A stretch of 21,682 bases of DNA. Source: a virus (Duplodnaviria > Heunggongvirae > Uroviricota > Caudoviricetes). Shown here one piece after another: positions 18,025 through 21,680 of this stretch (position 1 is the first letter of the stretch; the number at the start of each line of letters is the position of its first letter). The DNA lies in the IMG/VR virus record IMGVR_UViG_3300028797_000009, positions 64,001 to 85,682 of that record; one strand, 5' to 3'. The position numbers and the translations under genes were made by a program. The notes below the pieces were generated by a model. It saw only the letters and a list, made by a program, of their open reading frames with translations, made no database searches and had not been told where the DNA came from.

Positions 18025-18028
18025 TGAA

Positions 18029-18056
18029 AAATAACCCTCGGTAACGGGGGTTATTT
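18029..18056. terminator. Bidirectional intrinsic terminator between late and early modules
   Basis: AAATAACCCTCG-gtaa-CGGGGGTTATTT flanked by A and T tracts. Confidence 0.85.
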
Positions 18057-18063
18057 ATTGGAA

Positions 18064-18072
18064 TGGTATAAT
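18064..18072 (+). promoter_or_regulatory. Extended -10 promoter (TGgTATAAT) for candidate sRNA-1
   Basis: Exact TGnTATAAT just after the terminator, with no + strand ORF downstream. Confidence 0.65.
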
Positions 18073-18077
18073 TAACT

Positions 18078-18138
18078 AGTAGCGCTACTTATACCTCCTT
18101 TCTTTGAGAATAGTCCTCTTTGTAGGGCTATTCTTTTT
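18078..18138 (+). ncRNA. Candidate anti-SD small RNA 1 (~60 nt)
   Basis: Promoter 18064-18072, AGTAGCGCTACT palindrome 18078-18089, TACCTCCTTTCTTTG seed, hairpin AGAATAGTCCT/AGGGCTATTCT (18107-18134) plus T tract. Confidence 0.6.
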
Positions 18139-18376
18139 CGTTGTCAATCCAGTCTTTTGCTTCCTCTACGGTGTCGAATGGTTCGGCTAGAATACGGAAT
18201 TGTCCAGTATCGTCACCTGTTCCTTGTTCTGCAACTGCATAGATTGGTGATTCGTAGAAATCGTTTGTAGTAAGAACTTCGCTGATGGACAATGCGACCC
18301 CTTGTGTGTCGTATGTAGTGAAGTATGACACCTCGTTAGAATGTCTGACTAGAATGTATAATCCTTTATATTCCAT
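18128..18376 (-). CDS. Hypothetical protein (82 aa)
   Basis: GGAG upstream and TAATG coupling. Last gene of an early operon. Confidence 0.6.
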   Translation of the reverse strand: MEYKGLYILVRHSNEVSYFTTYDTQGVALSISEVLTTNDFYESPIYAVAEQGTGDDTGQFRILAEPFDTVEEAKDWIDNEKE

Positions 18377-18627
18377 TAGTGATATGCTCCGACTAATTTT
18401 CCATTATATTCAGATTTTGAACTGTTCCACCAATCCTTTGCTTCGTGGTAAGTTTTGAAAATACCATCTGTAAAATCCTCATTGTATCCAAGAGCGAAAT
18501 CTGTGCATCCTTTTACGCTTTCGCAAAAGATAACATATCCTGTTTCGATTTTGGCGATTTGTGGGGATTGAAAATTACAAGAATTAAATTTTCCAAAAGC
18601 ACCATTTAAGCGTTTGGTTGGTTTCAT
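18376..18627 (-). CDS. Hypothetical protein (83 aa)
   Basis: ATGA overlap upstream and TAATG overlap downstream. Confidence 0.6.
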   Translation of the reverse strand: MKPTKRLNGAFGKFNSCNFQSPQIAKIETGYVIFCESVKGCTDFALGYNEDFTDGIFKTYHEAKDWWNSSKSEYNGKLVGAYH

Positions 18628-19022
18628 TTTGATACGACCTCTCTGAATTTAACGCCCCATACCTTTTCAATCTGGTTAATGATGGAAGAGTATGGACGAG
18701 TTTTGTCTAGGGTTTTAGGGTAATCTTCTGGAAACTCATTTTTGAAGAACTGTCGCCATTGTTGAGCGGTTAATGGCTTAATTTTGAAGGCTGGCTTTTC
18801 TCCTTTTGAATTGCGAACGATGGTGTATTTATGAGATTTGCCACGCTTTGAGATTTTGCCTCCGATGGAACCTGCTGATTTGGCTAGTTCACGATTGGCA
18901 AAAAATCCACCAGTAGTTCCGTTCTGACCTCCGATAGAACCGATTTCCTTGTAGAAGTTTTTACCGTGTAAGCGTTTATTGGTTATACTTGCTTTTTTAC
19001 CCCCTAATTTTGTTCCTGACAT
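18624..19022 (-). CDS. KGG/Con-10-like repeat (general stress) protein with C-terminal extension
   Basis: GTKLGGKKA...FYKEIGSIGGQNG..GGFFANRELAKSAGSIGGKISKRG, with AGGAGGT SD. Confidence 0.75.
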   Translation of the reverse strand: MSGTKLGGKKASITNKRLHGKNFYKEIGSIGGQNGTTGGFFANRELAKSAGSIGGKISKRGKSHKYTIVRNSKGEKPAFKIKPLTAQQWRQFFKNEFPEDYPKTLDKTRPYSSIINQIEKVWGVKFREVVSK

Positions 19023-19089
19023 TTCTTTTACCTCCTAATTTTGATACTAAATAATCTATATGGATTGAAAATCTTTGATGGTCGCCTCC

Positions 19090-19314
19090 TTAAATGATTG
19101 TATTAATTTGCTCTAAAACCTTCTCTTCGAGTAGGTCTTGATATTCTTCCTCAACGAAAACATCTGGCATTGAGATAATTTCTGGGGTTTCGATTGCCTG
19201 GGCAACATAACCATCTCCGTCATCTCCGTAGTCGAGAATGTCTGGGACGAGAGTCCATTCAACCTCTTTATTTTCGATAAGATATTTTGCGATTAGTTCG
19301 ATTGCTTGTTCCAT
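19090..19314 (-). CDS. Hypothetical acidic protein (74 aa)
   Basis: AAGAAAGG SD upstream of ATG at 19314 (MEQAIELIAK). Very Asp/Glu rich. Confidence 0.6.
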   Translation of the reverse strand: MEQAIELIAKYLIENKEVEWTLVPDILDYGDDGDGYVAQAIETPEIISMPDVFVEEEYQDLLEEKVLEQINTII

Positions 19315-19325
19315 ATTAACCTTTC

Positions 19326-19670
19326 TTATGCGTACCAACTTTCGTAAACTTGCTCACCGTGATATGGGGTTGCGATATGACCACCAATCTCGAAGCATTG
19401 GAAATCTTTGTAGTAGTCTTTGAATTTGACGATTTTGCCTTTGATTACATCGTTGATAAATACATCCCAACTTTTGAGTCTGGCTGTTGATGTGTCATAG
19501 CGAGAATCGCTACACATAAACCCTGTTGAATCTACTTGTCTGTCCATATCTACGGGTTCAACCACGGCTTGTGTTTTGCCTCGAAGGGCTTTTATTCTGT
19601 AAAAGTCCACATTTGTTTGGTCGTATCCCCAACTGATTGCGAAGATGTCGCCAATTTTTGCCTTTTTCAT
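19326..19670 (-). CDS. Hypothetical protein with GDIF..SWGYDQTNVDFY motif (114 aa)
   Basis: AAAGAAAGGAG SD before ATG 19670. First gene after the promoter at 19720-19748. Confidence 0.7.
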   Translation of the reverse strand: MKKAKIGDIFAISWGYDQTNVDFYRIKALRGKTQAVVEPVDMDRQVDSTGFMCSDSRYDTSTARLKSWDVFINDVIKGKIVKFKDYYKDFQCFEIGGHIATPYHGEQVYESWYA

Positions 19671-19719
19671 ATTGTTTCTCCTTTCTTTATCTGGGTGGGT
19701 TTTCTCCCCTCCCATTATT

Positions 19720-19748
19720 ATTATATATGAAAACTCTCAAAAAGTAAA
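19720..19748 (-). promoter_or_regulatory. Sigma70-type early promoter P1 (TTTACT-17-TATAAT)
   Basis: -35 at 19743-19748, -10 at 19720-19725, 17-nt spacer. Homologous to P2. Confidence 0.75.
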
Positions 19749-19780
19749 TAGTTTTTTTGAAGATTTTTCGAGATTTTTAT

Positions 19781-19815
19781 AAAAAACCACCCTCAATTTT
19801 GGTGAGGATGGTTTT
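19781..19815 (-). terminator. Intrinsic terminator (sRNA-2 / SprT operon)
   Basis: Minus strand AAAACCATCCTCA-ccaaaat-TGAGGGTGGTTTTTT. Confidence 0.8.
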
Positions 19816-19847
19816 CCGATAAAAGAAAGGGTAATCTTAATGATTAC
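19781..19847 (-). ncRNA. Candidate anti-SD small RNA 2 (~67 nt)
   Basis: Promoter at 19854-19882, 5' hairpin GTAATC-attaa-GATTAC starting at the predicted +1 (19847), CCTTTCTTTTAT seed, terminator 19783-19815. Confidence 0.62.
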
Positions 19848-19853
19848 AAGCCT

Positions 19854-19882
19854 ATTGTAGTTTGTTTTTTGCCGTGTGTCAA
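19854..19882 (-). promoter_or_regulatory. Sigma70-type promoter (TTGACA-17-TACAAT) for candidate sRNA-2
   Basis: -35 at 19877-19882, -10 at 19854-19859, exact 17-nt spacer. Only ~65 nt to the next terminator. Confidence 0.75.
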
Positions 19883-19957
19883 TGTATAGATGAGTATTTT
19901 ATCGTATTTGGCTGAAAAAGCCGTCAGAAGCCAAAATACGAGGTCTGGTGGGGGATT

Positions 19958-20425
19958 TTACTTAGTTCCCGTGAGCTTGAAGTCCAATAGGTAGTTCGGG
20001 TTAAAATGTCCGTTGCTACAATAGGAGCAAGAATAACGGCGACCTCGACCAACACGGTTGCGAGTGAAGGTGTGTCCACAATGGGTACAGACTGCGTAAT
20101 ATTTTGGTAGAGGAGTAACTATATCTTCCGATGAATAGCATCTTTCTGGTTTTGCTCCAATTTGTTGGCAATAGTGCCTCCAAGTTGAATCGTGTCCGTG
20201 TTTTGCCCCTGCTAAACCGTGGGCAATTTCATGGAGAACGGTGTCTTTTGTGGTTTCCCACGGGTTAAGTTCGGCTAAAACTTTGGAGATGGTGATTAAG
20301 TGAGAACTACAATAGCAAGTGCCATAAGTTCTTTTACCTCTGCTCCAATGGAAAGCCCAATTTTCGCCTAGGTGTTCCTTAATCATCGTGCGTATTCTTG
20401 GTTCTAGGATTTGTAGAGATTCCAT
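19958..20425 (-). CDS. SprT-like zinc metalloprotease with C-terminal Zn ribbon
   Basis: TVLHEIAH (HExxH)...HGHDSTW, CTHC...CSYC. GAGGAG SD supports ATG 20425. Confidence 0.88.
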   Translation of the reverse strand: MESLQILEPRIRTMIKEHLGENWAFHWSRGKRTYGTCYCSSHLITISKVLAELNPWETTKDTVLHEIAHGLAGAKHGHDSTWRHYCQQIGAKPERCYSSEDIVTPLPKYYAVCTHCGHTFTRNRVGRGRRYSCSYCSNGHFNPNYLLDFKLTGTK

Positions 20426-20427
20426 AA

Positions 20428-20784
20428 CTACTCCTCGTTCCATTCATGTCTTGCGTTTTGGATGATGTCATCTAGCCAACGGTAGCCCATCTGGAAACGA
20501 AGAGTAATGGCGAATTTGTCTAGATTGCACATATCGTCTAAGTCGATTATGAAGATATTTAAATCGTTTTGGAATTCGTCTGTTCCACTCAGATTGAATG
20601 TTCCATTGAGGTCTTTACCTTGGCAAGTGTAAACCGTGAATTCGTCTTTGAGAAAATTGTTCTCTTTGAGCTGGTTTATGTAAAGGTGAAGTTCCTCTGG
20701 CATATATCCTAGCATTGTACAAGCACTGCCATCGCATAATTGATAAAGTTTTTTATCGAATGCTTTTAGTTCTTTTCTTTTCAT
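20428..20784 (-). CDS. Hypothetical protein (118 aa)
   Basis: AAAAGAAAGGA SD. First gene after promoter P2. Confidence 0.7.
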   Translation of the reverse strand: MKRKELKAFDKKLYQLCDGSACTMLGYMPEELHLYINQLKENNFLKDEFTVYTCQGKDLNGTFNLSGTDEFQNDLNIFIIDLDDMCNLDKFAITLRFQMGYRWLDDIIQNARHEWNEE

Positions 20785-20831
20785 ATATTTTCCTTTCTTT
20801 TATGGGAGGTATTATCCCTCCTCCCATTTTT

Positions 20832-20860
20832 ATTATATATGAAAAGTGTTAATAAGTCAA
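20832..20860 (-). promoter_or_regulatory. Sigma70-type early promoter P2 (TTGACT-17-TATAAT)
   Basis: -35 at 20855-20860 (within the last codons of the nuclease gene), -10 at 20832-20837. Confidence 0.8.
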
Positions 20861-21446: not shown

Positions 21447-21680
21447 TTACCACCATTTATTTGCGTTCCAGAAGGCTACTGCGTTCGACCAAGAACCGTA
21501 TCGGCTCTGTGCGTAGCTTTGGCACCATTTCATTTGTGTCACGGGATTTGTTTGCCAATCCGTACCTGCCGAAGCCATTTTGCTTCCTGGTAAACTTTGA
21601 CAAACTCCGTAAGCACCTGATGATTTATTGGTTGCCGTAGGATTACAATTAGACTCTTTTTGGAAGATGAAGTAAGCATT
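21447..21680 (-). CDS. Lytic transglycosylase (SLT; Apf/Rpf-like C-terminal domain), 3' part; not in ORF track
   Basis: My translation: NAYFIFQKESNCNPTATNKSSGAYGVCQSLPGSKMASAGTDWQTNPVTQMKWCQSYAQSRYGSWSNAVAFWNANKWW*. It has the ES catalytic motif, SGAYG.CQ.LPGSKM and terminal WW. Confidence 0.88.
   Translation of the reverse strand, partial: NAYFIFQKESNCNPTATNKSSGAYGVCQSLPGSKMASAGTDWQTNPVTQMKWCQSYAQSRYGSWSNAVAFWNANKWW

Follow-up and report, generated by a model that had tools for sequence, protein, structure and literature searches.

Two conserved candidate small-RNA genes with seeds complementary to the Shine-Dalgarno sequence of a repeated promoter cassette in a complete phage genome

The last 21.7 kb of the complete 85,682-bp phage record IMGVR_UViG_3300028797_000009 of IMG/VR, a stretch of 21,682 nucleotides (nt) referred to here as the window, carries two short putative transcription units, sRNA-1 and sRNA-2, next to two leftward operons, A and B. 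Each unit contains a C/U-rich stretch, the seed, which is complementary to the Shine-Dalgarno (SD) sequence of a promoter-leader cassette repeated in the early part of the genome, and seeds and promoter elements were conserved in all of the related phages that carry the units. We see about even chances that both units encode trans-acting anti-SD small RNAs (sRNAs) that would damp the translation of the regulon headed by these early cassettes. Coordinates are those of the window unless the genome is named.

Conservation and architecture of the two units

The following elements were assigned to the two units (UTR, untranslated region):

19854-19882, minus strand: sRNA-2 promoter, TTGACA-17-TACAAT, from the promoter scan
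19781-19847, minus strand: sRNA-2, predicted 67-nt transcript with hairpin (19847-19831), seed (19833-19819) and terminator (19817-19781)
18064-18072, plus strand: sRNA-1 promoter, extended -10 element TGgTATAAT (pattern TGnTATAAT)
18078-18140, plus strand: sRNA-1, predicted transcript of about 63 nt that runs against operon A, whose last codons and 3' UTR it overlaps
18090-18106, plus strand: sRNA-1 seed UAUACCUCCUUUCUUUG, containing ACCUCCUUUCU; 17 nt, invariant in all lineages
18106-18140, plus strand: sRNA-1 intrinsic terminator, from the terminator scan (18106-18135 called) and the comparison of relatives

In the predicted sRNA-2 transcript, a 5' hairpin of 6 bp is followed by a free CCCUUUCUUUUAUC tract and then by a terminator of 15 bp (z = -5.7). 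Its seed, ACCCUUUCUUUUA, has a predicted unpaired probability of 0.86-1.0. The unit was found in eight lineages (the window, L002, L130, L046, L003, L004/L005, L129 and L263-L274), whose SprT proteins are 50-84% identical. In all eight, the TTG of the -35 and the TAnAnT of the -10 element were unchanged, the hairpin started exactly 7 nt past the -10 element, with six variable nucleotides in between, and a 14-nt stretch of the seed, UACCCUUUCUUUUA, was invariant. The stem was 100% paired across the lineages and showed two compensatory pairs (GUAAUC/GAUUAC versus GUAGUU/AACUAC). The terminators were six unrelated sequences, all of which fold (z from -3.7 to -6.1). A mini-ORF (open reading frame) on the strand opposite sRNA-2 (MITSLL) was considered and rejected, as it has no start codon in L003, L129 and the L263 clade. 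A nut-like antitermination site, consisting of a hairpin followed by a U/C-rich box, was also considered for sRNA-2 and discarded; sRNA-1 points into the end of an operon, where such a site would be meaningless. sRNA-2 is very probably a real gene.

For sRNA-1, the predicted fold comprises a weak 5' stem, a free seed (mean unpaired probability of 0.66-0.97) and a 12-bp terminator (z = -2.6). This unit was found in five lineages representing three sequence types, and the architecture seen in the window was kept in L003, L004/L005, L046 and L263-L274. TGnTATAAT was unchanged across the five, with variation at the n and in the flanks. The layout of promoter, 5' hairpin, free seed and terminator, claimed for both units in the first-pass annotation of this DNA, was recovered in both, except that the supposed hairpin of sRNA-1 is a 12-nt perfect palindrome that folds only weakly. 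The palindromes differ between lineages (AGUAGCGCUACU, GUAGUACUAC and GGAGCUCC), and the idea that they were repeated operators was rejected because each occurs only once per genome.

The alignment of the sRNA-1 terminators had 97.7% of its cells paired, with one compensatory pair and some G-U pairs. In none of the five lineages was the hairpin less stable on the sRNA-1 strand than on that of the operon, and only the sRNA-1 strand had a U tract behind it. It overlaps the last codons of the gene for an 82-amino-acid (aa) protein at the end of operon A, and this operon, which has no U tract on its own strand, is therefore predicted to read through the whole sRNA-1 region. Another terminator lies on the other side of the unit:

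18027-18056, bidirectional: terminator closing the late (holin) module and, on the opposite strand, leftward operon A; a G+C hairpin flanked by an A tract and a T tract

Hairpins of other sequence occupy the same place in L003, L004, L046 and L263. Since the late operon has a terminator of its own upstream of sRNA-1, and no U tract follows the hairpin after the last operon A gene on the strand of that operon, the sRNA-1 terminator, the second of the two on its strand, mainly fits a transcript starting between them. On the operon strand, an orphan SD lies opposite sRNA-1; it was rejected as a real start site because a start codon follows it in no lineage. We consider sRNA-1 to be probably a real gene.

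The sequence common to sRNA-1 and sRNA-2 is limited to CCUUUCUUU. They are two unrelated families and not duplicates, each of them kept across lineages and behaving like a real small transcription unit under selection, which agrees with the earlier view of a conserved architecture rather than a duplication. No ORF of at least 40 aa covers either seed, and the 82-aa gene overlaps only the terminator of sRNA-1. Promoter spacers, hairpin loops and sRNA-2 terminators diverge between lineages and yet keep the structure.

The relatives were traced by way of proteins homologous to SprT and to the product of the 82-aa gene, which led to sewage and gut metagenome contigs, and one metagenome DNA scan added another. 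They are uncultured phages, many of them from pig-gut metagenomes, where the L263 clade is abundant. More distant SprT homologues (44-48% identity) belonged to phages with Bacteroidota-type promoters that lacked both units. An Rfam search (cmscan, E ≤ 10) of 18070-18140 and 19778-19848 gave no match, the C4 family included. No relatives were found among GenBank phages with near and distant DNA searches and one protein query, or in IMG/VR with scans for the promoter signature, the sRNA-2 hairpin plus seed, that seed alone and the sRNA-1 seed; the IMG/VR matches obtained (4 and 117) were due to chance, without the hairpin or without the expected surroundings. A 17-mer scan of the Joint Genome Institute (JGI) metagenomes returned at least 119 matches and, among the matches listed, one true relative, L046.

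Complementarity of the seeds to the repeated cassette

Both seeds can pair with AAAGAAAGG(A/AG), which is the SD of the repeated promoter-leader cassette and is rare at other genes. In the cassette, an A-rich tract lies upstream of TTGAyT, and 17 nt separate the latter from TTTTCATATATAAT; the leader that follows often opens with a hairpin and ends in (A)UAAAAGAAAGGA(G) and ATG. About 13 such sigma-70-type cassettes were counted, comprising eight strict copies followed by the SD AAAGAAAGGA and several variants. All of them belong to the early genome half or the leftward block, and the structural and lysis module has none. The genome contained 11 promoter-like sites with agreement at 11 or 12 of 12 positions, compared with 1.3 ± 1.1 in Markov-simulated sequence. 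Since this SD is common to about 13 cassettes and the same SD is kept in the cassettes of relatives, the pairing partner is a regulon-wide signature, and any regulation would be regulon-wide. The two cassettes nearest to the units are those that head operons A and B:

19671-19748, minus strand: promoter P1 (19748-19720) and leader with 5' hairpin and SD AAAGAAAGGAG (19688-19678), operon A
20785-20860, minus strand: promoter P2 (20860-20832) and leader with 5' hairpin and SD AUAAAAGAAAGG (20803-20792), operon B

The enrichment of matches at cassette leaders was assessed with a crude set of 138 genes, 22 of them promoter-proximal and 116 others. Matches to sRNA-1 of at least 10 nt were found at 11 of the 22 promoter-proximal genes and at 2 of the 116 others (p = 8e-9), and matches to sRNA-2 of at least 9 nt at 10/22 and 4/116, respectively (p = 9e-7). 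The matched ribosome-binding sites (RBSs) lie between 0.1 kb and about 60 kb from the units, neither of which overlaps an RBS.

The longest sRNA-1 match in the genome (12 nt) was at the RBS of a 52-aa membrane-peptide gene, genome 23771. For sRNA-2, the longest match comprised 16 contiguous nt, formed by the seed and the 3' arm of the hairpin, at the RBS of an Api92-like/DUF1281_C gene, genome 24278; this match in the Api92-like initiation region (L131:862-877; genome 24261-24276) was kept in three relatives (L136, L137 and L138). In the L129 and L263 lineages, the sRNA-2 hairpin arm is AACUAC and not GAUUAC. Two distant cassette leaders match sRNA-2 over 13 nt, compared with 12 nt for that of operon B.

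Several observations accompany these matches. The gene of the strongly hydrophobic 52-aa peptide (L131:372-527; genome 23771-23929) has its own promoter and a very short leader and is kept in L138; its product could be a holin-like or toxin-like membrane peptide. In L133 (genome 46900-47700, minus strand), a three-gene island inside the rightward block has a cassette promoter and a leader with matches of 13 nt and 11 nt to the two sRNAs. Read as its reverse complement, sRNA-2 resembles an SD-spacer-ATG region, a likeness in sequence which suggests that sRNA-2 may have originated from an inverted initiation region. Leaders A (19671-19713) and B (20785-20825), both on the minus strand, start with a GGGAGG...CCUCCC hairpin in which a cis anti-SD-like arm is paired to the SD-like 5' end. 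Other cassettes have different 5' hairpins that are kept in relatives, for example GUAAAGGU/ACCUUUAC.

The positions and strings on which the first-pass annotation had built its proposal were exact. CTCCTTTCTTT occurs at 18095-18105 (plus) and at 19678-19688 (plus), the latter being the complement of the SD of the 114-aa gene, and CCTTTCTTTTAT occurs at 19830-19819 (minus) and 20792-20803 (plus). The lengths of complementarity were right as well: 11 nt between sRNA-1 and the 19670 RBS and 10 nt with the 20784 RBS, and 12 nt between sRNA-2 and the 20784 RBS and 9 nt with the 19670 RBS. A minus-strand scan recovered P1, P2 and the sRNA-2 promoter, a plus-strand scan the sRNA-1 terminator, and the ORF list gave the gene orders of both operons as described. 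The further claim, that each sRNA best matches the first RBS of its own operon, did not survive the comparison, as sites at a distance of 35-60 kb match equally well or better. Cofold energies placed leader A about 10th among the partners of sRNA-1 and leader B about 6th among those of sRNA-2. In L002, L046, L004 and L129, the leader downstream of sRNA-2 matches it as well as any upstream one. The L263 clade has AGAGAAAGGA in its operon A leader and no such SD at the first operon B gene, with both seeds unchanged.

Proposed mode of action and alternative explanations

If both RNAs (about 63-67 nt) are made by the host RNA polymerase from their sigma-70-type promoters, the 5' stem would likely act as a stabilizer, and the C/U-rich seeds (UAUACCUCCUUUCUUUG and ACCCUUUCUUUUA) would pair with the extended SD (A)UAAAAGAAAGGA(G) that marks the strong early cassettes of the phage. 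As these stable sRNAs accumulate, they would occlude the common ribosome-binding site, possibly triggering decay of the messages. The outcome would be a delayed negative feedback by which translation of the early-cassette regulon is damped or shut off. Of the two, sRNA-2 is the more cassette-specific: it has no CCUCC, and what it matches is the SD variant specific to the phage. With ACCUCCUUUCU, the 3' tail of 16S rRNA in Bacillota, sRNA-1 nearly copies the 16S anti-SD tail and is less selective, and it is also antisense to the whole operon A 3' UTR. A bolder version, which is possible and which we hold only tentatively, is an RNA-only temporal switch, in which the two sRNAs would be present from the first minute and would later silence about 13 early operons marked by a private extended SD that is part of a mobile promoter-leader cassette, with sRNA-1 also serving to mimic the 16S tail and to act as antisense RNA against an operon 3' end.

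Several results weigh against a trans-acting role in damping the cassettes. Any anti-SD sequence pairs with ribosome-binding sites by construction, and the best cofold energies of sRNA-1 were obtained with ordinary GGAGG sites and not with cassette leaders. The nucleotides adjoining the sRNA-2 seed on its 3' side were examined for covariation with those adjoining the leader SD on its 5' side, and no preference for own over foreign leaders was found; one A-U to G-C coincidence at the homologous leader of the L263 clade was contradicted by L003 and L004. Seed and SD themselves are invariant everywhere and hence offer no intermolecular covariation, so that pairing in vivo is something we infer from the complementarity. 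Only one AAAGAAAGG leader was present in 12 kb of sequence from the L263 pig-gut clade. The covariation within sRNA-1 is thin: one compensatory pair among three sequence types, in a terminator whose base is constrained by an overlapping stop codon. In addition, it is uncertain whether two sRNA genes could match about 13 strong promoters in stoichiometry.

The same complementarities would be used differently if the units acted in cis, with sRNA-2 being the 3' UTR of operon B that folds back on the 5' SD and sRNA-1 an OOP-like antisense RNA whose duplex of about 60 bp directs cleavage of the operon A mRNA. sRNA-2 is indeed co-directional with operon B and no strong terminator precedes it; in L003 its promoter directly follows the SprT stop codon, without a hairpin between. 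The icaR mRNA provides a precedent for such a fold-back (PMC3868564). For sRNA-1, the complementarity to the 3' UTR of operon A is perfect, as the strand of this operon has no U tract behind the hairpin that follows its last gene. Nevertheless, a cis-antisense RNA needs no invariant 17-nt sequence, and the seed is the only invariant part of sRNA-1; both units keep their own conserved promoters, and sRNA-2 is intact in the pig-gut clade, where operon B starts with a gene that has no matching SD. As far as the compared sequences can tell, the invariant seed argues against a purely cis action, which we regard as unlikely and which does not exclude the trans action proposed above. It is quite unlikely that the RNAs are instead directed at the host, either as look-alikes of the 16S anti-SD that bind host RBSs for a translation shut-off or as decoys for a host or phage factor recognizing the 16S tail. 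The identity of ACCUCCUUUCU, within the sRNA-1 seed, with the 3' end of Bacillota 16S rRNA fits this explanation, as does the preference of the sRNA-1 cofold energy for generic GGAGG sites, but the lack of CCUCC in sRNA-2 and its match to a phage-specific SD do not, and a stoichiometric titration of all host SDs seems implausible.

The model of the first-pass annotation was one of operon gating, in which pre-existing sRNA silences its own operon in an established infection or a lysogen and allows a burst of expression in a naive cell; silencing on superinfection was considered along with it. The complementarities to the two adjacent leaders are real, the positions of the units relative to the operons are conserved, and immunity by antisense RNA is known from P22 Sar and P1/P7 c4 (PMC12197685). 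Against gating stand the better or equal matches elsewhere in the genome, the equal match of sRNA-2 to the downstream leader in relatives and the poor match of the adjacent leaders in the pig-gut clade. The lysogen scenario loses its basis with the absence of any detectable tyrosine or serine recombinase (integrase or resolvase) from the complete genome. This model is very unlikely in our estimation, and we give just as little credit to the absence of any RNA function, in which case the units would be leftovers of the shuffling of promoter/stem-loop cassettes, each an orphan promoter that faces a terminator, with inverted remnants of translation-initiation regions, or sites acting as DNA, such as palindromic operators or transcriptional insulators between modules. 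Such an origin would account for the SD-spacer-ATG order in the reverse complement of sRNA-2 and its 16-nt match to the Api92-like initiation region, for the perfect DNA palindrome of sRNA-1 and for the abundance in this genome of promoter cassettes that look mobile and resemble the PeSLs of T4-type phages (PMC2839356). A relic would decay, however, and here seeds, promoter elements and the spacing from the -10 element to the hairpin were invariant at 50-84% protein identity, and terminators were replaced by new functional ones; moreover, the sRNA promoters lack the cassette signature TTTTCATATATAAT, and the palindromes occur once per genome and vary with the lineage. This conservation, as judged by comparison of the lineages, argues strongly against a relic.

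Comparison with known regulatory RNAs

With regard to the features of trans-acting anti-SD sRNAs, a short non-coding stretch enclosed by its own promoter and an intrinsic terminator was present in eight lineages for sRNA-2 and five for sRNA-1, and the conserved seeds were predicted to be single-stranded and are complementary to the candidate target RBSs. C/U-rich anti-SD sRNAs of Firmicutes (RsaE/RoxS, LhrC, RNAIII and SprD) have an unpaired pyrimidine seed between stems, a terminator and multiple SD targets; they are chromosomal or prophage-borne and regulate host genes. In contrast, the units described here show no sequence or Rfam relation to them, have a linear seed and not a UCCC loop, and their putative regulon consists of the phage's own cassettes.

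Among phage RNAs, P22 Sar is a short RNA that blocks translation at a ribosome-binding site. The c4 RNA of P1/P7 resembles the proposed function in the same way, as a short phage RNA that blocks translation by pairing at the RBS (PMC12197685). Sar is cis-encoded opposite a single target, and c4, whose own target is ant, arises by processing from the operon that it regulates; both belong to temperate phages, whereas the present units are trans-encoded, with their own promoters, no RBS overlap, a multi-copy target and no lysogeny genes found. Neither unit lies opposite an RBS, as a cis-antisense blocker of the Sar type would, and neither matched the C4 family of Rfam at E ≤ 10. The OOP RNA of phage lambda is a short convergent RNA that overlaps the 3' end of an operon and has no conserved trans seed. 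sRNA-1 has the same geometry, running from promoter to terminator against the 3' end of operon A, and differs from OOP in that its only invariant part is the 17-nt anti-SD tract.

T4 regulates its early messages by means of proteins, the RegB endoribonuclease and the RegA repressor, which act in their global shut-off through ribosome-binding sites. The likeness is one of functional analogy only, and here an RNA would do the job. In the icaR mRNA of Staphylococcus aureus, a C/U-rich anti-SD motif in the 3' UTR pairs with the SD, blocks initiation and creates an RNase III substrate (PMC3868564). sRNA-2 is likewise located in the 3' UTR of operon B, but it has its own conserved promoter and its match to the leader of its own operon is not conserved, being 12 nt long in the window and absent from the L263 clade despite an intact sRNA-2. 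PeSL cassettes of T4-type phages are repeated strong sigma-70-like promoters with stem-loops in early, plastic regions (PMC2839356), and the many repeated cassettes of this phage are similar to them. PeSLs are recombination or regulatory cassettes with no proposed RNA product, whereas the sRNA units are individually conserved, carry no TTTTCATATATAAT in their promoters and were kept in all of the lineages found, unlike orphan relics of such cassettes. A type I toxin-antitoxin system does not fit the neighborhood either: the neighbors encode soluble proteins of 82-161 aa, and the gene of the 52-aa hydrophobic peptide is 58 kb away.

Neighboring operons and genome context

The genes of the two operons were as follows:

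18128-19670, minus strand: operon A genes (114, 74, 132, 83 and 82 aa), from the ORF list
19958-20784, minus strand: operon B genes (118 aa and SprT-like, 161 aa), from the ORF list

The first-pass annotation had suggested an anti-defence or toxic cargo; the SprT-like protein (Pfam E = 4e-13) was the only product of both operons that could be identified, and neither Pfam nor PHROG assigned a function to the operon A proteins. The label 'KGG', given at first pass to the 132-aa protein (18624-19022, minus strand), rested on a sub-threshold Pfam match (E = 0.1; 13.4 bits, cut-off 20.4) and was dropped.

The genome has 38% G+C and direct terminal repeats of 127 bp. Its rightward genes span from about 4.4 to 82.0 kb, and the leftward block crosses the termini, running from 4328 to 564 and then from 85331 to 82128. 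The sRNA loci are situated where the 3' end of this block and the late module, with its holin gene, come together. Among the products of the leftward block are an Erf/Rad52-like annealing protein, a T4 Rnl1-like RNA ligase, the SprT-like protease and many small ORFans. In the leftward blocks of L263-L274, L003 and L004, a metallophosphatase gene adjoins that of the T4 Rnl1-like RNA ligase, a pair that may constitute an RNA-repair (anti-anticodon-nuclease) module, and some also have a GIY-YIG/NUMOD3 homing-endonuclease-like gene.

Judging from its gene content, the phage is probably virulent, since no tyrosine or serine recombinase was detectable. The clade probably comprises gut phages of roughly 81-86 kb with hosts in Bacillota/Clostridia; the sole hint at the host was a cell-wall-binding domain, 64% identical to a domain in a metagenome-assembled genome of Clostridia. 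The large structural proteins had no match in a Pfam search. The only DNA likeness to GenBank phages was at 21525-21620 of the window, adjoining the terminal repeat, with about 77% identity over about 95 nt to tape-measure/transglycosylase segments of Lactobacillus and Streptomyces phages.

Significance

The principle of sRNAs with an anti-SD seed and the existence of phage antisense RNAs (c4, Sar and OOP) are already known. What is new is the combination: two RNA families without annotation or relation to each other, a clade of gut phages that are probably virulent, and a match to a private SD on a multi-copy promoter cassette. Only a small number of phage sRNAs are understood in their function, and most of these belong to temperate phages with Gram-negative hosts (PMC12197685). 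If the proposed trans action is true, a lytic gut phage would time its early program by RNA and not by protein repressors, through a 'barcode' RBS carried on a mobile promoter cassette. The design would be simple and testable: each of the two RNAs has about 65 nt, the target has about 12, and a dozen natural leaders offer graded complementarity. The two units would also provide new RNA families for the annotation of a phage clade that is common in pig-gut metagenomes.

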